Positions 42,735 through 55,495 of a stretch of 64,000 bases of DNA are shown one piece after another. The stretch is from positions 1,760,001 through 1,824,000 of the forward strand of contig OZ245020.1 in NCBI GenBank assembly GCA_965223865.1, in the 5' to 3' direction. How positions within the stretch are numbered: the stretch's first letter is position 1; each line of letters opens with the position of its first letter. Origin of the DNA: Nitrosarchaeum sp. (GTDB taxonomy: Archaea; Thermoproteota; Nitrososphaeria; Nitrososphaerales; Nitrosopumilaceae). Below the pieces are notes generated by a model. It made no database searches and was not told where the DNA came from. It was given only the letters and a program-made list of their open reading frames with translations. The position numbers and the translations under genes are program-made.

Positions 42735-43412
42735 ATGGAACCTAATGATGATGAAAAATATTATTTTAATTTCTCATTCTTCCAAATAGATCCCAAATGG
42801 AGATGGATGGCAGACCTTGCAAAAGAAGAATCTGCAAGAGAAGTAGAGAATGTTATAAAAAATTCAGGAATTAAATTTAGATCTTATTCAACATTAGGAT
42901 TACGTTCAGATGCAGACTTTTTGTTTTGGTTTGCTGCAAAATCAATTGAAGAAATTCAAAATGCCATTTCTAAACTGTATCTTACGGTTTTTGGAAAGTA
43001 TGTAATTCCCACACAAACATACATTTCATGCACAAGACCATCAATTTATGCAAGAAAAGGAAGGATAATCTCATTTGTTGCAGGAAATGAATCAAAAAAA
43101 TATGTCATTGTTTATCCTTTCACTAAGACAAGGGAATGGTATCTATTACCACAAGAAGAAAGACAAAAAATGATGGATGAACATATTGATGTCAGTCAAA
43201 AATATCCAGATATTGTTCTAAATACAACATACTCTTTTGGAATCGATGATCAGGATTTTATGTTAGCATTTGAAACTGACGAATTAAGAGATTTTCAGGA
43301 TCTAATAATGGATTTGAGAGAAACAAAAGTATCCAAGTACGTTAAAGTAGACACCCCAATGATTCCTTGCGTAAAAAGAGACATCATGCCTCTAATAGCC
43401 AGTTTAGGCTAG
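42735..43412 (+). CDS. Chlorite dismutase / coproheme decarboxylase (ChdC/HemQ) family protein
   Basis: GLR.DADFLFW, YPF.K..EWY.L..EER..MM.EH and YSFGIDDQDF. Confidence 0.85.
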   Translation: MEPNDDEKYYFNFSFFQIDPKWRWMADLAKEESAREVENVIKNSGIKFRSYSTLGLRSDADFLFWFAAKSIEEIQNAISKLYLTVFGKYVIPTQTYISCTRPSIYARKGRIISFVAGNESKKYVIVYPFTKTREWYLLPQEERQKMMDEHIDVSQKYPDIVLNTTYSFGIDDQDFMLAFETDELRDFQDLIMDLRETKVSKYVKVDTPMIPCVKRDIMPLIASLG

Positions 43413-43521
43413 AAATTGAAACTCACTGATGCAAATATTGGATAAACATAAATGAAGAAATTTTATTGAAAAATTAGTTTGGAAGAACTAAGTCTTTCAA
43501 AATGAAATCAAACGATGTAAA

Positions 43522-44520
43522 ATGAAATACAAAAAACTAGGTAAAAGTGGAATTAAAGTATCAGAGATAGGATTTGGAGCATGGACTATTGCTCTAGATT
43601 GGTGGGGCAAGAAAATTGAAGAAGATGAAGCAAAACGTATGCTAAAAAAAGCCTATGATTTAGGAATTAATTTCTTTGAGACTGCAGATATGTATGGAAA
43701 GGGCAAAAGTGAAAAATTAATTGGCGAAGTATTCAATGGAATGAGAGATGAGATTGTAATATCTACAAAATATGGATATGATTTCTCAGAAGCAGATCAG
43801 ATTGGTCATGCAGAGCTTCCTCAAAATTTTGATAAAGAATTTACACGAAAAGCACTCAATGCATCACTTGAAAGACTACAAACAGACTATTTAGACTCTT
43901 TTGGATTACACAATCCTAAATTAAATCATATTAGAAATTATTCAACTTTTGATACTCTTGATGAGTTAATCAATGAAGGTAAAATAAAATCATCACAGGT
44001 TGCATTAGGTCCCGCTATTGGATGGACACAAGAGGGTTTGGAGGCAATGGACAGAAAAAGTGTTTCTGCAGTTCAAACAGTGTACAATATTTTAGAGCAA
44101 ACACCGGGGAATGAATTGATTGAAAAAGCTGAAAAACAAGATGTTGGGATTTTAGTTAGAGTTCCAGATGCATCAGGTATTCTTACTGGTAAAGTTAAAG
44201 CAGAAACTATCATTCCAAGTAATGATCATAGAAAAGACAGAAAAGTTGAATGGAGAAAATCTGCATTACAAAAAGTAGAACAGTTCAGACCAATTGCTGA
44301 ACGGAATGGATTAAACATAACTGAATTTGCAATAAAGTTCATACTCTCAAAAAAGTCAATCGCATCAGTATTACCTACAGTTATTAACGAAGAAGAGATT
44401 GAAACATTTGCGTCTATCTCTGATGGAAACTATCTTAGTTCCTCAGACATGAAAGAGATTGATGATTTGTATAATACATGGCCTCCATACGAATTAAAGG
44501 CTACGCCTCAAGCTAATTAA
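43522..44520 (+). CDS. Aldo/keto reductase
   Basis: LGKSG.KVSEIGFG, ETADMYG.G.SE and SL.RLQTDYLD. Confidence 0.9.
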   Translation: MKYKKLGKSGIKVSEIGFGAWTIALDWWGKKIEEDEAKRMLKKAYDLGINFFETADMYGKGKSEKLIGEVFNGMRDEIVISTKYGYDFSEADQIGHAELPQNFDKEFTRKALNASLERLQTDYLDSFGLHNPKLNHIRNYSTFDTLDELINEGKIKSSQVALGPAIGWTQEGLEAMDRKSVSAVQTVYNILEQTPGNELIEKAEKQDVGILVRVPDASGILTGKVKAETIIPSNDHRKDRKVEWRKSALQKVEQFRPIAERNGLNITEFAIKFILSKKSIASVLPTVINEEEIETFASISDGNYLSSSDMKEIDDLYNTWPPYELKATPQAN

Positions 44521-44526
44521 TCGCTA

Positions 44527-44865
44527 ATGGACAAATCAATGGATAAAGAAAAGACAATAGAAATCATAGAAAGACTCAAGCTAGCAAAGATAGGAGATTA
44601 TAAAAAATGGGAATTAATAATTAAAAAAATTAAAACGGATATTCCATTAAATTTAGGAGAAATTGAATATTTTTCAAACTTGACAAGAATTTACAAAGAA
44701 TCAACGATTTCAAAAAGAACAAGAATTTATCACACAAAATTATCAGAATACGATAAAAAACCACCCTGCCAGACTTGTGGGGATTTTTCAGAATATTATT
44801 GCAACATGAATGACCAATACTTTTGTTTAATTCATGTAGTAGGGCATGACGATAATGAAATTTAG
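44527..44865 (+). CDS. Hypothetical protein with C-terminal B-box-like zinc finger
   Basis: CQTC....YYC..D..FC..H...H. Confidence 0.65.
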   Translation: MDKSMDKEKTIEIIERLKLAKIGDYKKWELIIKKIKTDIPLNLGEIEYFSNLTRIYKESTISKRTRIYHTKLSEYDKKPPCQTCGDFSEYYCNMNDQYFCLIHVVGHDDNEI

Positions 44866-45878
44866 GAAGCAGGAATTGTTTCTTCTAGGTTAAAATCATT
44901 TTCAACAAAGTATTCGACTCTAGTTTTTTTGAATTCACGAGAGCTAAACAATATCTTGTAGTCATCAACATTAATTTGATTTTGAATAGTTTGAGCCATC
45001 TCTTTAGCTTCCTCATGGGTTTTACAATGAATCATAGAAAATACATTGTATGGCCAATCAGGATACGTTGGTCTCTCATAGCAATGACTTACTTGAGGAA
45101 ATGCTCCAAGTTTTCCTCCAACTTCAGAAATTCTATCTTCAGGAACCTTCCATACAATCATTCCGTTTGCAGTAAAGCCAACTTGCCTATGTCGAAGAAT
45201 TGCGGCAAATCTTCGCATTACTCCAATACTTTCATAGTATTTCATTTTTTCAAATAGATGTTCTTCAGTTATGCCTAGATTATTTGCAGCTTTTACAAAG
45301 GGTTCATCAATAATTTCCATATCTTTTTGAAGTTCACGAATGAATTTTTTGTCAGTTTCATTAGGTTCAAATTTTATGTTTTGAATTTCTTTTTTCTGTT
45401 CAGTTGGTGCAACTTGATGTTTTTTTTCATCAACCATATCTAGTTTTACACCTATTTTGAATAATTGAAGAGTTGGTAGCATTCGGACTTTTTTTATTCC
45501 TTTTAGCACATTGAATTTTTCAAGTTCTGTTTTCAAATCAGAACCAGGTGGTACAGCTAAAGTAAACCATAGATTAAACTGATGGTCACGCTCATAATTA
45601 TGACTCACACCAGGATGTCGATTAATTTGACTTGCTACATATTCTAATTTTTTTGGCTCAATCTCCATTGCGACAAGAGAGCTGGTATAACCTAATTTTC
45701 TTGTATCAAAAATAGCGCTTAGTTGTCGCAATACACCTGATTTTTTGAGGTCATTCATACGTTCTTTAATAATTTCTGGAGTCGTTTCAAATTTTTTTGC
45801 TATAGCTTCAAAGGGTCTGGTAACAAGTGGAAAAGTCCATTGAATTTCGTTTAGGATTTCTTTATCCAACTCATCCAT
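44862..45878 (-). CDS. ahbAB: Siroheme decarboxylase, fused AhbA/AhbB (NirDL-like, Lrp/AsnC fold)
   Basis: Two halves with VSHNYER.H.FNLWFT and VSHCYERP....W.YN.FSMIH; start at MDELD. Confidence 0.88.
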   Translation of the reverse strand: MDELDKEILNEIQWTFPLVTRPFEAIAKKFETTPEIIKERMNDLKKSGVLRQLSAIFDTRKLGYTSSLVAMEIEPKKLEYVASQINRHPGVSHNYERDHQFNLWFTLAVPPGSDLKTELEKFNVLKGIKKVRMLPTLQLFKIGVKLDMVDEKKHQVAPTEQKKEIQNIKFEPNETDKKFIRELQKDMEIIDEPFVKAANNLGITEEHLFEKMKYYESIGVMRRFAAILRHRQVGFTANGMIVWKVPEDRISEVGGKLGAFPQVSHCYERPTYPDWPYNVFSMIHCKTHEEAKEMAQTIQNQINVDDYKILFSSREFKKTRVEYFVENDFNLEETIPAS

Positions 45879-45981
45879 TGAGGCCAATAAGTCAGTAACT
45901 AGTCTATTCAATTAAAAACTTAGCTAGAATTTTACGCCTCAGTTTTTAATACATAAATAGAAACTGTCGTCTTTTTGATCG

Positions 45982-46635
45982 ATGATAGTTGATCTGAACC
46001 TCCAAGGTAAAAAAGTAATTATCATCGGAGGCGGAAATGAAGCACTAAAGAGAATAAATTCATTGTTAAAACAACAATGCGATGTATTTGTAATTAGCAG
46101 TAAAGTAAATTCTCAGATTATCAAACTAGCCGAATCTAAAATAATAAAATTAAAAAAAATGAATATGGCTAATGTATCTATTCTTTCTAAATACAAACCA
46201 CATGTAGTAATTACTACTACAGATGACAGAAAATTGAATCAGGAAATAATAGAGTATGGGAAAAAAAATAAAATTATTACGTATAGTTCAGATAATCCAG
46301 ATGATAGTGATTTTGCAAATCCTGCAGTAATAGATATTGAAAACATCATACAAATTGCAATTTTTACTGGTGGAAGGAGTCCAGTAATGTCAAAAAAGCT
46401 GAAAATAAAATTTGAAGAGATTTTTAAAAAATCCGTAACAAAGGAGGAAATTGATCAAATTAAAATTCAAAAGATCGTCAGGGAGTTAGCCAAAGACAGA
46501 ATATCCACTCAAAAAAAGAGAAAAGAAGTTCTAAGCAATATTATGGCTGATAATGAGATTGATCAGTTAATAAAAGACGGAAAATTGAAAAAAGCTGAAA
46601 AACGGGCAATTACAATATTGAGAGATTGGGAATGA
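45982..46635 (+). CDS. sirC: Precorrin-2 dehydrogenase / sirohydrochlorin ferrochelatase
   Basis: IIGGGNEA, DNP..SDF..PA and TGGRSP. Confidence 0.88.
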   Translation: MIVDLNLQGKKVIIIGGGNEALKRINSLLKQQCDVFVISSKVNSQIIKLAESKIIKLKKMNMANVSILSKYKPHVVITTTDDRKLNQEIIEYGKKNKIITYSSDNPDDSDFANPAVIDIENIIQIAIFTGGRSPVMSKKLKIKFEEIFKKSVTKEEIDQIKIQKIVRELAKDRISTQKKRKEVLSNIMADNEIDQLIKDGKLKKAEKRAITILRDWE

Positions 46636-47894
46636 AGCAAAACATCATAAATGCAAGGGTAACTTTTCGTGGATCTCCAATTCATGTTTTAGAAAGATTT
46701 ACAATTAGAGATTTAGAGGGAGCATATGAACAATTTAAGAAACACTCAGGATTAGATGAGTGTGTAATTATTCAGACGTGTAACCGAATTGAATTGTTTG
46801 GAAAATCAAAGGAATGTAATGCTGAAAAGATCAAAAAGACATGGGCATCATTGACGGGTTTAGAGGAAGAAGCATTCAAAGATAATTTAGAATTAGTTGA
46901 AAATCAACAAGCATTTCATCATCTTCTAAAACTCACATCAGGATTAGATTCAATGGTACTTGGAGAAGAACAGATTTTAGGCCAAATTAAAAATTCCATC
47001 ACAGAGGCAAGAAGTATCAAAGCATCAGGTCAGCATCTCAATACTCTTTTTGACAAAGCAATTAGAATAGGAACACGAATTAGAAATACCAGCGGTATTG
47101 GGCGAGGAGGAATTTCTGTTGGTTCTATGGCAGTAAAATTAGCAGAAGAAAATATTGATGAGTTAAAATTTAAAAAAATATTACTGATTGGAACAGGAGA
47201 AGTTTCAACTCTTGTTGCAAAATCCCTTCAAAGAAGAGGATATGGTTTTTCAGTAACTAGCAGAACTCTTGAAAGATCGAAGGCATTTTGTGAAACAATG
47301 GGAGGAAAGCCAGTTAAATTTGAAGATGTTTTATCAGGATTTGAAAATTATGATGTACTTTTTGTAGCAACTACTGCACCATACTTTCTTGTAACATATG
47401 AAAGGATTACAAATGCCATGAAGGAAAAGAAAACAGGTATGATGATTTTGGATTTGTCAAACCCTAGAACAGTAGATGAAAAAGTAGCAACTATTGGAGG
47501 TATTAAATTAATGAATCTTGATCAAATTGCTGAAATGGTTGAAAAGAATATGAATGCACGATTAAACAAGGTAAAAACCGTTGAAAATATAATTAATGAA
47601 GAAGTATCAGTTCTAGAAGCCTCAATGAAAAGACTAGATGCCGAACCACTCGTTAAAGATGTTTTCAAAAACATAGACTCTCTTAGAATAAAAGAATTAC
47701 AAAAAGCACTGCATATGCTTGATGAAAAAGATGAGAAAAAAATCAAGATAATTGAAGAGTTAACAAAGGCAGTAGTAGAAAGTATAGTATCTACTCCCAT
47801 GAACAATATTAGAAAGGCATCTGAGCAAGGAGATCCTTATGTTATTGAAATGGCAAGCAAATTATTTGACTATAAAAAGAGTCAATTAGACTAG
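46632..47894 (+). CDS. hemA: Glutamyl-tRNA reductase
   Basis: QTCNRIE, GLDSMVLGE.QILGQ and DLSNPR. Confidence 0.95.
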   Translation: MKQNIINARVTFRGSPIHVLERFTIRDLEGAYEQFKKHSGLDECVIIQTCNRIELFGKSKECNAEKIKKTWASLTGLEEEAFKDNLELVENQQAFHHLLKLTSGLDSMVLGEEQILGQIKNSITEARSIKASGQHLNTLFDKAIRIGTRIRNTSGIGRGGISVGSMAVKLAEENIDELKFKKILLIGTGEVSTLVAKSLQRRGYGFSVTSRTLERSKAFCETMGGKPVKFEDVLSGFENYDVLFVATTAPYFLVTYERITNAMKEKKTGMMILDLSNPRTVDEKVATIGGIKLMNLDQIAEMVEKNMNARLNKVKTVENIINEEVSVLEASMKRLDAEPLVKDVFKNIDSLRIKELQKALHMLDEKDEKKIKIIEELTKAVVESIVSTPMNNIRKASEQGDPYVIEMASKLFDYKKSQLD

Positions 47895-47919
47895 GATTAT
47901 ATTTTACCCTAAAGGATTT

Positions 47920-48906
47920 TTGAGTATGTCTTTTCCTATGAGACGACTTCGTAGATTAAGAACTTCTTCAAAAATGAGGGAGTTGGTACAAGAGACTAGT
48001 TTATCACCAAGAGATTTCATTTGCCCAGTTTTTGTTCAAGAAGATCTAAAGACAAGAATTAAAGTAGAATCAATGTCAGAGATAGAACGATTGCCTCTTG
48101 AAGACATTAATGATGAGGTAGGAACAATTTCAGATTTAGGCATACCTGCAATTATGTTATTTGGAATTCCAAGTAACAAAGATGAAGCTGGTTCATCAGC
48201 ATTTGATGATAATGGAATTGTTCAAAAGGCAATTTCCCAGATTAGAAAAAACTTTGGAGATAAAATGGTGATTATGGCAGATGTATGTCTGTGTCAATTT
48301 ACATCAACAGGACACTGTGGAATTATTCAAGGAAATAAAATCGATAACGATACTAGTTTGGACACTTTAGCAAAAATAGCCGTAAGTCAGGCAAAAGCAG
48401 GTGTTGATACTGTCTCACCATCTGCAATGATGGATGGTCAAGTAGCTGCGATTAGAGAAGCTCTAGACGGTGAAGGGTTTACTGATGTATCTATAATGTC
48501 ACATTCAGCAAAACATCGTTCTGGGTTTTACTCACCTTTTAGAGATGCTGCGGAATGTGCACCAAAATTCGGAGACAGAAAAACATACCAAGTTCCTTTC
48601 ACAAATGCAAGAGAAGCCATGTTGGAAGTTCAAACTGATATCAATGAGGGGGTAGATATTGTAATGATTAAACCAGCTTTATCATATCTAGATCTTATTT
48701 CAGAAACTAGAAAGAGATTCGACGTTCCAGTTGCAGCATACAGTGTTTCAGGAGAATATGCATTAGTTAAAGGAGCAGCAAAACAAGGTTGGATTGATGA
48801 AAAGAACATCACAGAAGAAATACTATATTCCATTAAAAGAGCAGGTGCAGACATGATTGTGACATACTTTGCAAAATCAGCAGCAACATTTCTTCAAAAA
48901 TCATGA
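47920..48906 (+). CDS. hemB: Porphobilinogen synthase
   Basis: RRLRRLR, DVCLC....GHCG, MMDG and MIKP. Confidence 0.96.
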   Translation: MSMSFPMRRLRRLRTSSKMRELVQETSLSPRDFICPVFVQEDLKTRIKVESMSEIERLPLEDINDEVGTISDLGIPAIMLFGIPSNKDEAGSSAFDDNGIVQKAISQIRKNFGDKMVIMADVCLCQFTSTGHCGIIQGNKIDNDTSLDTLAKIAVSQAKAGVDTVSPSAMMDGQVAAIREALDGEGFTDVSIMSHSAKHRSGFYSPFRDAAECAPKFGDRKTYQVPFTNAREAMLEVQTDINEGVDIVMIKPALSYLDLISETRKRFDVPVAAYSVSGEYALVKGAAKQGWIDEKNITEEILYSIKRAGADMIVTYFAKSAATFLQKS

Positions 48907-49257: not shown

Positions 49258-50166
49258 CTATTGCTCCAAGTTTAATGGAATAGATGCACTTCCATACGGT
49301 TCAGAGATTCTAAAGACATAATCTTTTGAAGAATCATAGATGAATTGTGTTCCACCATATCCAATATTTGGACCAAACAACATGTTGAATATTGCAGACT
49401 CTCCAGATTTCAGAACAATTTGCCCATTTGTAAAATCCATGCCAGAATACTTGAATGCCTTTTCACCATTCCAAACATCATAGTTACATACAGCAGGACC
49501 AGTACACATCATGGAAATATTATCTGATGAGCCATTATTTTCAGCTAGCATTCTAATTGAAAGAATTGCCTGACCAGATGGAGAAATTTCAAATGAATTT
49601 CCTTCACTTCCAAGATCGGCCCAATAATAAGTCAATGGTCCTACTTGGAAAGACTGACCATTTGTTTTTATTTTGTAAGCTTCAATTTGATGCTCAGCTG
49701 CTTTTTCACAGTTTAGTCTAGGATATGCTTTAGTAATCTCAGAACATTTTTCAAGCTCTGTTTCAAGGGAAGCTAATTTTGAATCATTAGTTGCTGATTG
49801 CATTGGAGCTTCAACTACAGGTTCAGAAGTTGAAACAGAGACAATACCAGTTTTTATCAGATGTTGAATTCCGTTAACAAATTCACCATCAGAAATTGTT
49901 CCATCAGCCCACCATCCTGCATTGTTTTTTACCCAAGCTGGTACACCTTCAGACGATTCAGCAGATACTGTTGTTGGAGGAACTACAATAATACCATCTT
50001 CTATAAGGAATTGAATCCCTTGTACAAATTCTGATTCAGAAATTGTTCCATCAGCCCACCATCCTGCATTGTTTTTTACCCAAGCTGGTACTTCTTCAGC
50101 ACTTGCAAAAGAAGTAATTGATCCTACTAAGAGAATTGCTGCAATTGTGGTTATTGTGGTTTTCAT
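49258..50166 (-). CDS. Exported protein with two N-terminal VPAWVKNNAGWW repeats and a C-terminal beta-rich domain
   Basis: Signal peptide; the two repeats are identical at DNA level over about 55 bp (about 49889-49944 and 50036-50091). Confidence 0.8.
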   Translation of the reverse strand: MKTTITTIAAILLVGSITSFASAEEVPAWVKNNAGWWADGTISESEFVQGIQFLIEDGIIVVPPTTVSAESSEGVPAWVKNNAGWWADGTISDGEFVNGIQHLIKTGIVSVSTSEPVVEAPMQSATNDSKLASLETELEKCSEITKAYPRLNCEKAAEHQIEAYKIKTNGQSFQVGPLTYYWADLGSEGNSFEISPSGQAILSIRMLAENNGSSDNISMMCTGPAVCNYDVWNGEKAFKYSGMDFTNGQIVLKSGESAIFNMLFGPNIGYGGTQFIYDSSKDYVFRISEPYGSASIPLNLEQ

Positions 50167-50214
50167 TAACGTGTTTTTCCATTCATAATATTTAAGCTGG
50201 TGCCAATAATTTGT

Positions 50215-50259
50215 CTAGTGCTAAATTTTAAAAGAAATTGTAAAAATATCTAGTGGTAA
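50215..50259. promoter_or_regulatory. Two regulon boxes serving divergent promoters (ctagtgctaa 50215-50224; ctagtggtaa 50250-50259)
   Basis: Each lies 20-21 nt from a TATA-like element (50189-50195 on minus; 50281-50287 on plus). Confidence 0.7.
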
Positions 50260-50310: not shown

Positions 50311-50868
50311 GTGAAGGAAAAGCAAGAATATTCCAATGTAGGATTGCCTGTTATTTCTGAGGATGATGTTAAAAATTATGTATTTGAGAGATTTGAAGAC
50401 GTTAAAAGGTTAAAAAAAATCAAAAATCTCGTGAATTTTCAGGCTATGAATAAGTACATGATAATGGCCCATAACCAAGAGCAACTCAAAAAGCTAGGAA
50501 ACATTGTAGCTAGTTATAAAAAAATCCCCTTTTCAGAAATTTTAGAGAGTTATGAAGAAAATCTAAGAATTGCTCTAAAGAAAAAACCAACCAAGAAAAT
50601 GCATACAAATGTAATTATGCATATTTTTGGACATTTTTCAAAAAAATTGAATCAATCTGATAAAGAATTGTTTTTTCAGTTATTAGAAGAATATAGAAAA
50701 GAAAAGATCAGCTTAGGAGATATTCTTGTAGAAATAAATCCAGTCATATTTAGATTCAACAATACCTATCTAGCTAGTCAGACCTACTTTTTATTATATT
50801 CAAACATTATTCCAGGAATTCCATTTCAATCTCTCAATAATGAAAACGTCATAAAGGATCTAAATTAA
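50311..50868 (+). CDS. DUF1722 (YbgA-like) protein
   Basis: FQA.NKY.IMAH....K.LG, H.NV.MH.FG.F.K.L and YLASQTYF. Confidence 0.85.
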   Translation: MKEKQEYSNVGLPVISEDDVKNYVFERFEDVKRLKKIKNLVNFQAMNKYMIMAHNQEQLKKLGNIVASYKKIPFSEILESYEENLRIALKKKPTKKMHTNVIMHIFGHFSKKLNQSDKELFFQLLEEYRKEKISLGDILVEINPVIFRFNNTYLASQTYFLLYSNIIPGIPFQSLNNENVIKDLN

Positions 50869-50893: not shown

Positions 50894-50929
50894 TTAGCAC
50901 TATAAAATATAGTTAGCATTAGTTATATA
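50894..50929 (+). promoter_or_regulatory. Regulon box, second half-site and TATA upstream of the B12-binding regulator
   Basis: TTAGCACTA (50894-50902), TTAGCATTA (50913-50921) and TTATATA (50923-50929). Confidence 0.7.
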
Positions 50930-50950: not shown

Positions 50951-51793
50951 ATGGTATACATTAGAGCAAAGAAAGTAAAATCTGATCAATATCTTTATCT
51001 TGTCAAAAGTGTGTGGGATTCTCAGAAAAATACATCAAAACAAGAAATAATCAAGTATTTAGGAAAAGCATCTGATGTTGTAAAAGATGATATTCCTTCA
51101 GATTACAGAAATGATTCTAAAATATTATCTGTGTTGGCAAAATTTAATCCTAAAGATATTAAAAAAAGAGAAGATGCATCAAAAAAATCAAAACAGCAAC
51201 TATTTAAAAAATTAACAGAAGGAGATATTCAGGCTTCACTAAAGATCTATCAGGAATATACCAAAATTTTTGATACTCCAGATTTTTTTGATAAAATTCT
51301 AAAACCAGTAATGTATAAGATTGGAGACGATTGGGCTACTGGTAAAATCAGTATTGCAACAGAGCATGTAGCAAGTAATGTTGCACAAACCCTTGTTAAA
51401 ATTATAATGGATCAAGTTACTGGAAATGCCAACAAAAAGAAAGTCTTAATTTGTGTTCCTCTTGGAGAGGAACATCATCTTGGTTGTGACGTACTAGAAA
51501 CATATCTTTCAATTAAAGGATTCAAAGTATACAACATGGGAACATCAATGCCCACGGAATCTATTTTGAATTTCATCGATAACAACAATCCTGATGTAGT
51601 ACTATTATCAATAACCTTGGAGGATAATCTATCAGCAGGACAACGACTTGTAAGAAAGATCAAAGAACGATTTAACATTCCAATTTTGGTTGGCGGTTTT
51701 GCAATAGAGGGAGAAAATATCCCAAAGTTTGATGCAAAAATAATACCAAAATCATCACTAGAAGAAATCCCCAAGTTGATTAGAACAGCATAG
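50951..51793 (+). CDS. Cobalamin-binding (CarH/LitR-like) putative regulator with non-MerR N-terminal domain
   Basis: W-x9-EH (WATGKISIATEH), GEEHHLG, G..V.N.G...P and VGG Rossmann motifs; basic beta-rich N-terminus. Confidence 0.85.
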   Translation: MVYIRAKKVKSDQYLYLVKSVWDSQKNTSKQEIIKYLGKASDVVKDDIPSDYRNDSKILSVLAKFNPKDIKKREDASKKSKQQLFKKLTEGDIQASLKIYQEYTKIFDTPDFFDKILKPVMYKIGDDWATGKISIATEHVASNVAQTLVKIIMDQVTGNANKKKVLICVPLGEEHHLGCDVLETYLSIKGFKVYNMGTSMPTESILNFIDNNNPDVVLLSITLEDNLSAGQRLVRKIKERFNIPILVGGFAIEGENIPKFDAKIIPKSSLEEIPKLIRTA

Positions 51794-51801
51794 TTTATTT
51801 C

Positions 51802-53136
51802 TTATTTTTTTAAATAAGATTGTATTTTAGGCATGCAAAGAATAGAGCTATGGGCTGCTGAATCAGTACCTATTCCGTAACTAATAGTAGAATCCCCTAC
51901 AAAAAACAACCCCTTAATGCTAGGAATTTCATGTGGCATTTTTGATTTCCATACCAATCCAGGTTCTTTTACAACTGATTCCACAAGATTCCAAGCCATT
52001 GGGCGTTCCCAAAGTAGTGATTCCTCAAATTGAGGGTAAATCGAAGAGATTTCTTTTTTCATTGTATTTACGATCATACGTATTTGTTTTGGATCATCAG
52101 TGACAGAGGGATCTACTGGAGTTCCAGCAATTATCAAATGTTCTCCCGGAGGAGAAACTGATGAAGTAATGTTTGAAATGAAAAAAATTCCTTTTGTAGT
52201 ATAATTATCACCGACTGGAAAAACTACTTGTCTTGTATCAAGTTGAGATTTTAAGGCAAAATGAACCTCTACTACTGCAGTTTTTTTGTTTAACTTGTTT
52301 ATCTCTTTTACAAATTTTTCATCAAATACATCTCTGTCAAACAATTGATTAATTGCCATGTAAGCAGGGTAAGAAATCACAACACAGTTTGTCGGAATAA
52401 AATCATTACTGTTTGTTACTATTCCTGTTACTTTAGAATTTTCAATAATAATTTTTTTTACAGAGCAGTTTAGCTCAACATTACCATCATTTTCTTCAAT
52501 GTATTGGGCCAAAATTTTTGAAATTGAATCATATCCACCGTCTTCAGGATAAGCAAATTCACTTGTTCCTCCTTTGAAAGGATTGGCACGGATTATTGTC
52601 CTTGCAAATTCACCTAAAGAAATATGATCAACAGTATCAGCAAAAGCCAACATGCATACTGCCTCAAAAAATGCATTTGTTTCAGGATCTAATTTGGAAG
52701 TTATTTCTTTTAGAGAAAGGTTATCCCATTCTTCTGTTTTTTCAATGGAGGTAAAAGCCATCGGGAGAAGTACTTTCAAAAGTTTGATTCTACTTTTTAA
52801 TGGAATCAGAGAAAGGCGTAAAAGGTCATTCATTCCTTTAGGATATTTGTGAAATCCTGAATCAGAATGAAAGGCAATATTGTCAACTTTGGCAAGTTTT
52901 AGTTTTGATTCAATTTCTAATGATTTTAAAACAGTGAAAATTGCAGATTTTTTGTAAAAGGGCATAATATGAAAGCCATTATCTAGAATATGGTTTTTAA
53001 ATTTCATAGAGGCAGTTCTGCCACCTAATTTTGAGGATTTTTCAATAATTCTTACAGGATGTCCTTTTTGTGCAAGCATAGCACCTGTGGTTAGTCCACC
53101 CACTCCTGCTCCAATAATGTAAATGGGTTCCCTCAT
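51802..53136 (-). CDS. FAD-dependent oxidoreductase, phytoene desaturase/amine oxidase superfamily
   Basis: IIGAGVGGL, EK...LGGR, LDNGFH, YP.GG and GLFFVGD. Confidence 0.85.
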   Translation of the reverse strand: MREPIYIIGAGVGGLTTGAMLAQKGHPVRIIEKSSKLGGRTASMKFKNHILDNGFHIMPFYKKSAIFTVLKSLEIESKLKLAKVDNIAFHSDSGFHKYPKGMNDLLRLSLIPLKSRIKLLKVLLPMAFTSIEKTEEWDNLSLKEITSKLDPETNAFFEAVCMLAFADTVDHISLGEFARTIIRANPFKGGTSEFAYPEDGGYDSISKILAQYIEENDGNVELNCSVKKIIIENSKVTGIVTNSNDFIPTNCVVISYPAYMAINQLFDRDVFDEKFVKEINKLNKKTAVVEVHFALKSQLDTRQVVFPVGDNYTTKGIFFISNITSSVSPPGEHLIIAGTPVDPSVTDDPKQIRMIVNTMKKEISSIYPQFEESLLWERPMAWNLVESVVKEPGLVWKSKMPHEIPSIKGLFFVGDSTISYGIGTDSAAHSSILCMPKIQSYLKK

Positions 53137-53157: not shown

Positions 53158-53194
53158 TATTTATGCAGGTGCCAAATAATTTACATAGTGCTAA
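53158..53194 (-). promoter_or_regulatory. Regulon box, half-site and TATA upstream of the flavoprotein gene
   Basis: Minus strand TTAGCACTA-N10-TTGGCAC-CTGC-ATAAATA. Confidence 0.7.
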
Positions 53195-53644
53195 CTATTT
53201 GGACAAATTATAAGAATTAAATTTCTCAGTAGATTTAATAAACTGATCCATTACTGAACTCATCTGATTTGCAAGATAATCTTCTAAGAATCCAAATAAC
53301 TTGAAAAATCCATTTAATCTTAATCTTACATCAATTGAAATAACTGTTCCATCATCAGATTTTACATATGACTCTACAAATACAGTCCCCTTAGTAGGCC
53401 CACTAAGAATATAGATTTCGTGATTTGAGGGTTTTTTAATTACATGTTTTGTTTTTATTTTTAGGGGAATTCCAAGAAATTTTATTTTTTCTAAAACAAT
53501 TTTTTCATTCTTTGTTTGTCTAATGATTTTTAATGATTTAAAATAATCAGGCATTACCTGATGAAAATTTTCGACATCAGTACTTAAATGAAATATTCTT
53601 TCTTGAGATAATGAAGAATTTCTCGTTAGAGTAAAATGTTTCAT
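53195..53644 (-). CDS. SRPBCC / polyketide cyclase-like (START fold) protein
   Basis: IF.L.TDVENF.QVMP.YF.S..I N-terminus and a C-terminal amphipathic helix. Confidence 0.8.
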   Translation of the reverse strand: MKHFTLTRNSSLSQERIFHLSTDVENFHQVMPDYFKSLKIIRQTKNEKIVLEKIKFLGIPLKIKTKHVIKKPSNHEIYILSGPTKGTVFVESYVKSDDGTVISIDVRLRLNGFFKLFGFLEDYLANQMSSVMDQFIKSTEKFNSYNLSK

Positions 53645-53647
53645 ATC

Positions 53648-53824
53648 TTAATCACTATTTTCAGATAATGAGAAATTTGTTTGTATATTTTCAAGGTTAT
53701 TGTAATTACTTTTTTTGATTTTCAAGCGAACTAAGGATGAAAGACAAACGTTCAGTTTTTTTGGATTTTCATCAGAATTCAAATTTTTTGTAGATTGGGA
53801 CAGGAAAGACAATTCAGTAATCAT
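53648..53824 (-). CDS. Small ORF (58 aa) leading the SRPBCC gene
   Basis: MITELSFLSQSTKNLNSDENPKKLNVCLSSLVRLKIKKSNYNNLENIQTNFSLSENSD*; follows a boxed promoter and stops 3 nt before the next ATG. Confidence 0.45.
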   Translation of the reverse strand: MITELSFLSQSTKNLNSDENPKKLNVCLSSLVRLKIKKSNYNNLENIQTNFSLSENSD

Positions 53825-53866: not shown

Positions 53867-53919
53867 ATAGTGCCAATAATTTGTTATTGTATTAATATTT
53901 AGGAGCGAATTAGCACTAG
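53867..53919. promoter_or_regulatory. Two regulon boxes serving divergent promoters (atagtgccaa 53867-53876; ttagcactag 53910-53919)
   Basis: 19-20 nt from TATA-like elements at 53841-53847 (minus) and about 53938-53945 (plus). Confidence 0.7.
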
Positions 53920-53967: not shown

Positions 53968-54123
53968 ATGGAAGAAAATCTTTCAATTTCATATGGAGTT
54001 GAATCAGGTTATGCGATGATTGAGAATAAAGAGTTTGGTTTGATTGAAAACATCTCAAAGGTGTTATCTAAAGTAAGAGAACTTGAGAGCCAAACAGCAA
54101 TAGTAATTCAAGTCTCAGGATAA
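53968..54123 (+). CDS. Small ORF (51 aa)
   Basis: MEENLSISYGVESGYAMIENKEFGLIENISKVLSKVRELESQTAIVIQVSG*; ATG about 22 nt after the TATA-like element. Confidence 0.55.
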   Translation: MEENLSISYGVESGYAMIENKEFGLIENISKVLSKVRELESQTAIVIQVSG

Positions 54124-54132
54124 AAAACTAAA

Positions 54133-54363
54133 ATGAGTAAATTAAAACCATATAGACCAAGCATCATAACAGCATTTGGAGTAATCTTTTTGATTTCAGC
54201 AATAATTATTCCAATTCAAAATTTGATTGTGTGGGGTCCAGATTTTGTGATGGAGTTTTACACATCGTCTCAAATAACTTCAGAGAAAATATCAATTGGA
54301 GTGATTGCATTTGGTCTTGCATTAATTTTGATAGGTTATAAAAAGCAAGTCTATGTTGAATAG
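54133..54363 (+). CDS. Small two-helix membrane protein
   Basis: Two hydrophobic segments in 76 aa. Confidence 0.7.
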   Translation: MSKLKPYRPSIITAFGVIFLISAIIIPIQNLIVWGPDFVMEFYTSSQITSEKISIGVIAFGLALILIGYKKQVYVE

Positions 54364-54374
54364 AAGTTTAATAA

Positions 54375-54410
54375 TTACCACTAGTTACAAAAACAAATCT
54401 GGCTTAAATA
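54375..54410 (+). promoter_or_regulatory. Regulon box and TATA upstream of the uORF-tfb unit
   Basis: TTACCACTA (54375-54383), N20, then TTAAATA (54404-54410). Confidence 0.65.
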
Positions 54411-54431: not shown

Positions 54432-54596
54432 ATGATAGTAAAATCATCTTACCAAGAAAAAAACAGAAATTCATTAGTATATGTAAATTCTAAAATCAAA
54501 ATTTGTATTAATTATAGTAATTACAAAATAAAATTTCATGAGTTTGGAGTATCCTGTAAATATTATGGAGAACCATTTTGGAGGATAAAATGTTAA
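54432..54596 (+). CDS. Small ORF (54 aa) whose stop overlaps the tfb start
   Basis: MIVKSSYQEKNRNSLVYVNSKIKICINYSNYKIKFHEFGVSCKYYGEPFWRIKC*; ATG 21 nt after TATA, ATGTTAA overlap with tfb. Confidence 0.4.
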   Translation: MIVKSSYQEKNRNSLVYVNSKIKICINYSNYKIKFHEFGVSCKYYGEPFWRIKC

Positions 54597-55495
54597 CCGA
54601 ACTTGTGCATCAACAAAATTGCAACAAAAATAAAATAATTACAGATTTAGATACTGGGGAAATTGCATGTAGTAATTGTGGTGCAGTATCACATGAAAAA
54701 CCAATTGAATTTGGACCAGAAATTTCTGGAATTACAAAAGAAGAATATCTTAAAACATCTCGAGTTGGAAGGAAAATTTCATTAAAAATAGCCGATATGG
54801 GCTTATCGACAATAATAGAGTCACAAGATAAGGATGCTACTGGAAAGTACTTATCAAAAGAGAATCGTAGAATGTTTTATCGCCTTCGTATGTGGGATAG
54901 AAATAGTCGTTCTGCAAATACTGTAAAATCATTGCAAAAAGCATTTCTTTTACTTGATGGAATTAGAGCAAAACTTAATCTTCCTGAACCAGTTGTAGAA
55001 CATACAGCCTATCTTTTTAGAAAAATTTCAGCAAAAAAAATTCTTAGCGGCAGAACTACTTCAGGAATTCTTTGTGCTACAGTGTACATTGCATGTAGAT
55101 TAACAAACACACCTAGAACCATACAAGATGTTGCCGATGCTGGAAATATCAAAAGAAAAAACTTACAGAGAATTTACAGATTTTTAATAAAAGAGCTAAA
55201 CATCTTTCCTAATGCATATAATCCACATGAATTTATTACAAGAATTTCAAAAACTATTAGCATTTCAGAAAAAACAGAAAGACTTGCATTTAACATTGTT
55301 TTGTTGACAGAAAAAATAGGAATATCTACAAGCAAGAATCCAATGGCAATGGCAGCAGCATCTATTCATTTGGCATCCTTGAAAAATAATGAAAAAGTTT
55401 CACAATTAAAAATTTCAGAGGCATCAGGTATAAGTGCTGTAACAATTAGGGATCGAGCAAAAGAGATCAAAGAAAGATTAGGAGGTGAAATTTAG
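54590..55495 (+). CDS. tfb: Alternative TFB paralogue
   Basis: ITD..TGEIACSNCG, DMGLST.I...KD..G, RLR.W, two cyclin folds and ISAVTIRDR; GGAGG precedes the ATG at 54590. Confidence 0.9.
   Translation: MLTELVHQQNCNKNKIITDLDTGEIACSNCGAVSHEKPIEFGPEISGITKEEYLKTSRVGRKISLKIADMGLSTIIESQDKDATGKYLSKENRRMFYRLRMWDRNSRSANTVKSLQKAFLLLDGIRAKLNLPEPVVEHTAYLFRKISAKKILSGRTTSGILCATVYIACRLTNTPRTIQDVADAGNIKRKNLQRIYRFLIKELNIFPNAYNPHEFITRISKTISISEKTERLAFNIVLLTEKIGISTSKNPMAMAAASIHLASLKNNEKVSQLKISEASGISAVTIRDRAKEIKERLGGEI

Follow-up and report, generated by a model that had tools for sequence, protein, structure and literature searches.

Inhibition by light is widely reported for ammonia-oxidising archaea. Does one of their genes encode a transcription factor that senses light? 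The question is raised by a gene at 50951..51793 (+) in a 64,000-nt stretch of Nitrosarchaeum sp. DNA (assembly GCA_965223865.1, contig OZ245020.1, positions 1,760,001 to 1,824,000; hereafter the window), whose product, called here the B12 protein, carries a cobalamin-binding module resembling that of CarH photoreceptors behind an N-terminal domain (N-domain) of a different kind. From its motifs and predicted folds, the homology of both domains, a promoter operator with its regulon, and co-occurrence of the operator with the gene and of the gene with photolyase, we consider it reasonably probable that this protein acts in Nitrosopumilaceae as a light-released, autoregulated repressor of a light-stress regulon, dependent on 5'-deoxyadenosylcobalamin (AdoCbl).

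Gene and protein organization

The open reading frame (ORF) at 50951..51793 (+), stop codon included, encodes 280 aa and starts with the N-terminus quoted in the initial annotation of the locus. A homologue search with this protein retrieved 2180 sequences at E<=1e-3, from sources whose names include Nitrosopumilus and Nitrosarchaeum, and the closest named locus belongs to a Nitrosarchaeum metagenome-assembled genome (97% identity). Only two Pfam families pass their cut-offs, B12-binding_2 (residues 82-152) and B12-binding (residues 164-250). The full-length AlphaFold2 (AF2) model has a predicted local distance difference test (pLDDT) score of 91.7, and a complex prediction with two full-length copies, run without controls, scored 0.04, a value that weighs on neither side as regards oligomerisation. 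The following parts can be delimited:

50951..51793 (+), gene of the B12 protein, N-domain plus B12 module (ORF list, homologues, AF2 model)
50951..51115 (+), N-domain, residues 1-55: basic three-stranded sheet (1-39) and a conserved D-I-P-x-E-Y-R stretch; proposed sequence-specific DNA-binding domain (AF2, conservation, hhalign)
51116..51226 (+), basic linker helices, residues 56-92 (AF2 helices 56-65 and 67-89; isoelectric point (pI) 10.0)
51227..51412 (+), four-helix bundle (B12-binding_2, PF02607), residues 93-154, with helices 93-106, 109-129 and 135-154 and W-x9-EH at 51332-51367 (Pfam 1.4e-10)
51428..51790 (+), Rossmann-type B12-binding domain (PF02310), residues 160-280, with E-x-H-x2-G at 51467-51484 (Pfam 3.5e-13)

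The cobalamin module

The initial annotation had read the cobalamin module as a photoreceptor of the CarH type and not as a methyltransferase corrinoid protein, an assignment that the motifs and similarity searches support. The stretch WATGKISIATEH (W-x9-EH) lies at residues 128-139 and GEEHHLG at residues 172-178, and in the phmmer alignment to Thermus thermophilus CarH (TtCarH; 5c8a, 8c31) W128, E138, H139, E173 and H175 face the W, E, H, E and H of CarH. A regular-expression match found the classic motif E-x-H-x2-G-x41-S-x-T-x25-GG complete at residues 173-249. Conservation was counted on 41 diverse full-length relatives with identities to the query down to 23%, among which W128 is kept in 37, E138 in 39, H139 in 38, and E173 and H175 in 40 each. 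Since they are in register with CarH and conserved in relatives, these cobalamin motifs are not a chance occurrence. H175 is the presumed lower axial ligand. According to an excerpt of PMC9304148, photoreceptor activity depends critically on the Wx9EH motif, which touches the adenosyl group in the upper axial position. The same excerpt states that this motif and the classic motif together distinguish AdoCbl-dependent CarH from B12-independent CarA, the criterion for the former being D/E-x-H-x2-G/P-x41-S-x-T/V-x22-27-GG with an intact Wx9EH.

The best sequence matches to the B12 protein in the PDB are photocobilin (8j2w/8j2x, 8.8e-13) followed by CarH entries (1.3e-11 to 2.2e-10), and methionine synthase and methyltransferase corrinoid proteins rank behind these photoreceptors, at 3e-9 and weaker. 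When the full-length model was submitted to Foldseek, 25/25 among the matches listed (ranks up to 49) were B12 photoreceptors, namely photocobilin, TtCarH in both dark and light states, and a Chloracidobacterium MerR-family domain. The best NCBIfam model is the CarH equivalog (1e-18), aligned over model positions 81-269 only and scoring 67.6 bits against a cut-off of 400 bits. An assignment as response regulator or histidine kinase, found in some source names, was rejected, since Pfam Response_reg reaches 18.2 bits where 30.2 are required.

The N-terminal domain

Neither Pfam, searched up to E<=10, nor PHROGs has a match to residues 1-80. AF2, run on an alignment of 97 sequences, places beta strands at residues 2-9, 12-23 and 28-39 as a block with pLDDT 93-95, followed by helices at 56-65 and 67-78, and residues 1-39 are basic (9 K+R against 3 D+E, pI 9.85). 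A MerR-type winged helix-turn-helix is not found here, given the absence of any Pfam match and the three strands, and the annotation of this N-terminus as a basic three-stranded sheet other than a helix-turn-helix is borne out. It is also the best-conserved portion of the protein, with R5, K7, Y14, Y16, V18, W22, Q31, Y36, G38 and P49 invariant in the 41 relatives.

Two likenesses had been proposed for this sheet, to integrase arm-binding domains and to the N-termini of IS1634-type transposases. The first is not supported, because no solved structure convincingly resembles the N-domain: the best Foldseek match in the PDB has an E-value of 0.52, the best match among solved folds with VIA is to ribosomal proteins (Z 4.6), and no integrase arm-type or Tn916-type domain is among the matches listed by either program, bearing in mind that small sheets match poorly. 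Other searches were equally empty. The profile of the domain against PDB sequences gave at best a chance match to viral rhodopsin (E 0.97), Foldseek against BFVD a Holliday-junction resolvase over 36 columns (E 0.057), and its features against the ESM Atlas a best value of 0.83 to unnamed clusters, under the usable level.

The second likeness stood. A phmmer search of 1.84 billion representatives found 120 proteins with the N-domain at E<=1e-3, nearly all of which carry it N-terminally and are about 280-310 aa long or fragments. In a few others it precedes an HNH endonuclease (P0210, P0227) or a domain of about 130 aa of no known kind (P0217, P0225, P0234), or it stands in tandem, as in P0221, whose cluster includes a Woesearchaeota-named protein. 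A search for longer relatives with P0221 gave 1 match, and tblastn with P0221 against plasmids hit 25 records, of which 12 have an "IS1634 family transposase" annotated under the match; the other 13 comprise 7 hypothetical proteins, 4 records without a feature there, 1 unannotated record and 1 methyltransferase. In 4/4 plasmid records examined, the match corresponds to the very first residues of the transposase coding sequence, and these N-termini read Y-L-Y-L-V-E-S-V-R...V-R-Q-R-T-I-K-x-L-G-R. The domain alignment A4 aligns in hhalign with the four IS1634 N-termini at a probability of 97.7% (E 1.4e-12), the 43 aligned columns taking in each of the three strands. In an hmmsearch of A4 against 10,624 genome ORFs plus the four transposases, the latter rank right after the B12 protein (3.8e-7 to 1.3e-3; best decoy 0.77), with the caveat that they were found with P0221, a member of the extended family, and that A4 holds one P0221 domain. 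A six-frame search with A4 in other families of the Nitrososphaeria recovered the N-termini of three DDE_Tnp_1 proteins of 452-464 aa (8.5e-18, 1.6e-20 and 4e-8), and these independent matches remove much of the worry about circularity.

On these comparisons the N-domain is homologous to the N-termini of IS1634/DDE transposases. The window's own N-domain gave nothing at E<=10 in tblastn against plasmids, so the link to transposases rests on an intermediate sequence and on profiles. The B12 protein as a whole is not an IS1634-family transposase, the DDE_Tnp_1 catalytic domain being absent from it. No Pfam model covers the N-terminal region of IS1634 transposases, nor did our searches turn up a function assigned to it, and the beta-sheet N-domain, as a mobile and unannotated domain family, merits a model of its own.

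An operator at the promoter of the gene

The 130 nt before the start codon were aligned for the window and 74 related loci. All 75 promoters share a rigid module composed, relative to the TATA box, of TTAGCACTAG at -29..-20, a non-conserved 9-nt spacer, TTAGCA(T/C)TAG at -10..-1, and the TATA box itself, TTA(A/T)ATA. The 10-bp direct repeats are thus spaced 19 bp apart, the proximal one occupies the position of the recognition element (BRE) of transcription factor B (TFB), and the TATA box begins 28 nt before the ATG, which suggests that the transcript of the B12 gene is leaderless. In the window the module is made up as follows, with scores from a position weight matrix (PWM):

50894..50903 (+), distal operator repeat TTAGCACTAT, at -29..-20 from the TATA box (14.2 bits)
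50913..50922 (+), proximal operator repeat TTAGCATTAG, in BRE position at -10..-1 from the TATA box (15.3 bits)
50923..50929 (+), TATA box TTATATA, 28 nt before the ATG (columns 0-6 near-invariant in the 75 promoters)

The PWM was derived from related loci with the window left out and used to scan the whole genome, counting as operator-promoter a site of >=11 bits with a TATA box and a start codon at 53-62 nt from which an ORF of >=40 aa begins. The scan found 11 operator-promoters, and 0 in each of 10 block shuffles. Exact copies of TTAGCACTAG number 9 in the genome, 8 of which fall within two regions. The idea that this enrichment of the 10-mer is an effect of composition was dropped. About 4 copies are expected from base composition by our own arithmetic, an excess that is weak by itself; the argument for the operator is carried by the fixed positions, by the empty shuffles (0 of 10) and by the co-occurrence described below.

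Genes headed by the operator

Within the window, the module heads the B12 gene and five further units. These and the adjoining genes are the following:

50197..50259 (-), promoter of a secreted-protein gene with three operator copies (50250-50259, 50215-50224, 50197-50206; 14.5, 17.0 and 14.4 bits) and a TATA box; ATG 58 nt from the distal repeat
49258..50166 (-), gene of a secreted 302-aa protein without Pfam family, putative target (operator-promoter before the orthologue in 55/80 loci)
50311..50868 (+), DUF1722 (YbgA-like) gene directly upstream of the B12 gene (Pfam PF08349, 1.1e-35)
53166..53194 (-), operator pair (53185-53194, 53166-53175; 14.2 and 9.5 bits) before a CrtI-like gene; ATG 58 nt downstream, orthologue operator-headed in 19/80 loci
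51802..53136 (-), FAD amine-oxidase / phytoene-desaturase-like (CrtI-like) gene, putative target, convergent with the B12 gene (Pfam Amino_oxidase 2.1e-29; NCBIfam matches all below cut-offs)
53867..53876 (-), operator copy (13.7 bits) with a TATA-like box before a 58-aa ORF (53648-53824) and an SRPBCC gene (53195-53644); start codon 52 nt away
53910..53919 (+), exact TTAGCACTAG (17.0 bits) with a TATA box before small ORFs at 53968-54123 and 54133-54363; ATG at 58 nt
54375..54384 (+), operator copy (14.5 bits) with a TATA box before a 54-aa ORF (54432-54596) that overlaps the start of a TFB paralogue gene (54578-55495); ATG at 57 nt

The secreted-protein promoter lies 50-110 nt upstream of the divergent DUF1722 gene. 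The secreted protein contains two copies of a repeat of about 45 residues (VPAWVKNNAGWWADGTIS..EFV.GIQ.LI) and is, after the sensor, the most consistently operator-headed. The 54-aa ORF overlaps the TFB start in a different frame, and a separate TATA-like box is present about 31 nt before a TFB ATG at 54590.

In a set of 80 related loci (743 kb), 282 operator-promoters were counted, and in 224 the distance between distal repeat and start codon is 57 or 58 nt. The operator heads the B12 gene in 75 of these loci, the secreted-protein gene in 55, the TFB paralogue directly in 29, the CrtI-like gene in 19, p61 and the 54-aa ORF in 15 each, p134 in 14, and a short-chain dehydrogenase (SDR) gene in 13. 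The surroundings are conserved as well: DUF1722 lies upstream on the same strand as the B12 gene in 63/80 loci with a variable insert in between, in 45/80 the CrtI-like gene and the B12 gene converge within 100 nt, and a TFB paralogue neighbours it in 53/80. A second operator region was found in the genome on contig C1 (1430.8-1441.8 kb), where four operator-promoters precede proteins without Pfam family, and it holds the only photolyase of the genome (PF00875, 3.2e-41).

Distribution of gene, operator and photolyase

Co-occurrence was assessed in 401 genomes of the class, using the strict pattern TTRSCACTAK-N8-10-TTRNCAYYAK for the operator. The N-domain profile matches 168/401 genomes and the strict pattern 121/401 (5 for a reversed-pattern control), and 116/121 pattern-positive genomes are also gene-positive. 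Put the other way, the pattern occurs in 116/168 gene-positive against 5/233 gene-negative genomes; one of these five (G135, at G135:C1:1200558-1200621) is an artefact, a tandem array of the 9-mer TTACCACTA that matches by periodicity. Presence of the gene varies within genera, and the pattern tracks it. For example, genus g2 has the pattern in 14/14 gene-positive against 0/10 gene-negative genomes and genus g5 in 9/9 against 0/7. In a second family, the pattern lies about 59 nt before the gene (G130, G134, G167, G276). Genus g14, of the same family as the window's genome, has the sensor gene in 1/32 genomes and neither operator (0/32) nor photolyase (0/32).

Photolyase was found in 51/401 genomes, 47 of which also carry the B12 gene. 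The exceptions are G189, where the operator is present in an assembly of 120 contigs, G158, G241, where the match is below the cut-off, and G009, where the gene is broken by a stop. Among 36 pairs with comparable coordinates, 20 have the photolyase <=5 kb from the B12 gene. The p194-photolyase arrangement stands behind the operator in 4/20 fetched neighbourhoods, and in several others of the 20 a DUF1722-photolyase unit is divergent from the operator-bearing secreted-protein promoter. The operator cluster of the window's own genome, in C1, adjoins its only photolyase.

Bacterial precedents are of a similar kind. An excerpt of PMC11417400 describes DUF1722 genes as often present in light-responsive operons under AdoCbl-dependent LitR, and in PMC9758184 the LitR region of Pseudomonas is described as encoding, besides hypothetical proteins, a photolyase, an FAD-dependent oxidoreductase and a short-chain dehydrogenase. 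The neighbours of the archaeal sensor (DUF1722, SDR, FAD oxidoreductase) fall, compared by class, into the same general annotation classes as these LitR gene sets, as far as the excerpts describe them. Taken as genomic patterns, the operator, the regulon and the photolyase linkage speak for photoreception and DNA binding.

Variable insert and second island

DUF1722 and the sensor gene are separated in most relatives by an insert of 2-4 kb. As examined in L013:1035-4776 and L054:2860-4667, this insert contains an SDR gene of 459-475 aa divergent from the sensor, together with Nre (archaeal repair-related) and Peripla_BP_2 (BtuF-like) genes in L013, and a 125-aa ORF without Pfam family in L054. 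In the window's genome the SDR sits in the other island (C1) and not beside the sensor.

This C1 "light island" (G000:C1:1430800-1441800, L081) also carries two USP-like 144-aa genes, identified by reading the sequence; an SDR of 458 aa, whose C-terminal region looks hydrophobic by eye; and two PPOX-like genes, one with Pfam support below the cut-off and the other recognised by reading. Two of its genes are split, a TFB paralogue into pieces of 177 and 68 aa (L081 9248-10125, -) and a p194 paralogue into pieces of 98 and 67 aa (L081 8144-8689, +). In addition, a 91-aa protein (G000:C1:1432957-1433232, -, corresponding to L081:1957-2232) consists of the four-helix bundle alone (B12-binding_2, 1.5e-4). 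It is 51% identical to sensor residues 78-157, has kept the E-H pair and is without the Trp, and its gene lies on the same strand as, and upstream of, a USP-like gene and the photolyase. This protein could modulate the sensor or act as a decoy for it.

Proposed mechanism

We infer that the B12 protein is the operator binder, AdoCbl its ligand, light the signal and the dark form the repressing one. The C-terminal two-thirds of the protein would bind AdoCbl, with H175 below the corrin ring and W128, E138 and H139 capping the adenosyl group. The N-terminal 55 residues, a sheet of transposase type, would replace the MerR helix-turn-helix and recognise the 10-bp site TTAGCACTAG. In the dark, the AdoCbl-loaded protein would oligomerise and its sheet heads occupy the two direct repeats 19 bp apart. 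The bound protein may then cover the BRE/TATA junction and exclude TFB and the TATA-binding protein (TBP), and initiation would be blocked because the proximal repeat sits where TFB needs the BRE, beside the TATA box. Light would cleave the Co-C bond, with loss of the adenosyl group, disassembly of the complex and opening of the promoters, including that of the sensor itself. The putative regulon comprises the B12 gene, the secreted protein, the CrtI-like FAD oxidoreductase, the SRPBCC protein and small ORFs, to which relatives would add the TFB paralogue, the membrane SDR and photolyase operons. Should the rest be right, a repressor is slightly favoured over an activator.

Several observations weigh against this mechanism. 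As regards the protein, TtCarH has a His directly after the Trp, and photolysis turns this His into the upper ligand (bis-His light state); the archaeal protein has Ala129 at that position, where 0/41 relatives carry a His, so photochemistry or light state may differ from those of TtCarH; and the N-domain is matched by no solved DNA-binding fold (Foldseek E>=0.5, best VIA Z 4.6). As regards the operator, it might be bound by some other factor, a repeat spacing of 19 bp is no whole number of helical turns, and the strict pattern is missing in 52/168 N-domain-positive genomes, at least 5 of which carry other architectures. As related genomes are not independent, Fisher values for the co-occurrence overstate the case. 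Finally, as regards the regulon, 121 gene-positive genomes are without a photolyase match, the photolyase of the window's own genome has no operator directly upstream that is recognisable in the PWM scan, and most regulon genes are of no known function, none of them being a proven photoprotection gene.

Alternative explanations

A sensor of cobalamin status would be built from the same parts. Such a protein would bind the operator only when loaded with (adenosyl)cobalamin and tune expression to the B12 supply, as a protein counterpart of the B12 riboswitch, and the B12 module and operator fit it equally. Ammonia-oxidising archaea make cobalamin, as stated in an excerpt of PMC6908642, the variable insert of one relative (L013) contains the BtuF-like gene, and the many sensor-bearing genomes lacking photolyase are what such a role would allow. 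A tetrapyrrole cluster is present just upstream in the window, at 42735-48906, with genes for glutamyl-tRNA reductase (hemA), ALA dehydratase (hemB), a SirC-like NAD-binding protein, a chlorite-dismutase-like (HemQ-type) protein and a siroheme decarboxylase of fused AhbA/B-like type. However, none of these cluster genes is operator-headed (no operator is listed between 48000 and 50190), and the operator heads no gene for cobalamin biosynthesis, for its transport or for a B12-dependent/independent isoenzyme. Moreover, the Wx9EH cap is tied to photoreceptor activity in the excerpt of PMC9304148, and the linkage with photolyase and DUF1722 points to light. We regard a status sensor as rather unlikely.

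Alternatively, another factor, such as the neighbouring TFB paralogue, could read the operator, the proximal repeat being a special BRE; the B12 protein would then be an AerR-like light-dependent partner or antirepressor and its N-domain no DNA binder. The proximal repeat is exactly at the BRE position, the TFB paralogue neighbours the gene in most of the related loci and is itself operator-headed in 29, no solved DNA-binding fold matches the N-domain, and AerR (7te2) is an example of a B12 photoreceptor that lacks a DNA-binding domain. Yet the same 10-mer recurs 19 bp upstream, with a third copy in one promoter, as expected of a repeated factor site and not of a BRE, and the operator precedes the gene even where the fetched flanks showed no TFB (e.g. 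L012, L026, L028). The N-domain is, moreover, the most conserved part of the protein and is common to transposases and HNH endonucleases, enzymes that must find DNA. This makes the involvement of another factor quite unlikely.

A corrinoid carrier for methyl transfer, as suggested by source names ("methanogenic corrinoid protein MtbC1", "methionine synthase protein") and by weak NCBIfam corrinoid-protein matches (2e-12 to 4e-11), is highly improbable, since these scores are far under the curated cut-offs (46.8 against 215.3 bits; 42.9 against 350 bits), no methyltransferase is among the neighbours (DUF1722, FAD oxidoreductase, SRPBCC, TFB), photoreceptors outrank corrinoid proteins by both sequence and fold, and the N-domain, operator and autoregulation would be left unexplained.

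Implications

The light-released repressor thus stays the preferred reading. The literature searched, which was without subscription journals and supplements, describes no B12 photoreceptor or light-sensing regulator for ammonia-oxidising archaea; what came up was off the subject or a mention in a reference list. Epipelagic lineages carry photolyase, unlike deep ones, according to Luo et al. 2014 as cited in an excerpt of PMC4839502. We see an evenly balanced case for the broader proposal that this is the first archaeal light-sensing transcription factor, a B12 photoreceptor whose head was domesticated from an IS1634-type transposase and which controls a light regulon of ammonia oxidisers from sea and soil. 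If true, nitrifiers would possess a direct molecular light switch, whose targets would be the photolyase-linked operons and the genes of a membrane SDR, of a CrtI-like oxidoreductase, of a secreted protein and even of a TFB paralogue, and a light-controlled paralogue of a general transcription factor would be of interest in itself. The unannotated N-terminal region of IS1634 transposases would receive a first function, site-specific DNA binding, and a compact operator-repressor pair would become available for light control of archaeal promoters. The defined 10-bp operator makes the question of light sensing testable, and the labels MtbC1, response regulator and histidine kinase, widely attached to the family in error, are corrected.

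Comparison with known systems

Proteins of the AerR type are not known to have a DNA-binding domain and act on CrtJ. The B12 module of AerR (PDB 7TE2) belongs to the same superfamily as that of the archaeal protein, with a much weaker similarity (E 2.3e-3). Photocobilin from Saccharothrix syringae (8J2W/8J2X) is the best sequence match and among the best fold matches to the B12 module; it has a further C-terminal domain and no N-terminal DNA-binding domain (chains of 329-341 residues, aligned from residue 7). The B12 domain of a Chloracidobacterium MerR-family protein (8JBS) is matched in sequence at 5.6e-10 and is also among the best fold matches.

At the other end of the protein, the N-terminus of IS1634/DDE_Tnp_1 transposases is alike over about 43 residues (Y-x-Y-L-V-(E/K)-S ... 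(R/K)-Q ... L-G). Unlike these transposases, the B12 protein is without the DDE catalytic domain, has two additional residues in the loop that joins strands 2 and 3, and shows a conserved W22-D23 where transposases have R.

The closest parallel in overall plan is CarH/LitR (TtCarH, PDB 5C8D/5C8E), with an N-terminal head (DNA-binding in CarH, proposed to be so here), the Wx9EH four-helix bundle and the ExHx2G..SxT..GG Rossmann domain, the fold match extending over about 200 residues (template modelling score about 0.6, E about 4e-13). A direct-repeat operator overlapping the core promoter, probable autoregulation and linkage with photolyase and oxidoreductase genes are further likenesses. TtCarH binds as a tetramer to tandem 11-bp direct repeats, whereas the archaeal operator consists of 10-bp repeats with a spacing of 19 bp. 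The archaeal protein also differs by a three-stranded sheet in place of the MerR helix-turn-helix and by the missing His after the Trp, and, its host being an archaeon, its target would be a TATA/BRE promoter and not a sigma-70 promoter. It would work in the manner of CarH/LitR, yet it falls outside that family: the MerR domain is missing and the equivalog score is far below the cut-off. Under the proposed mechanism, the photosensory module of CarH could work with a head other than MerR and with the TBP/TFB machinery of Archaea.

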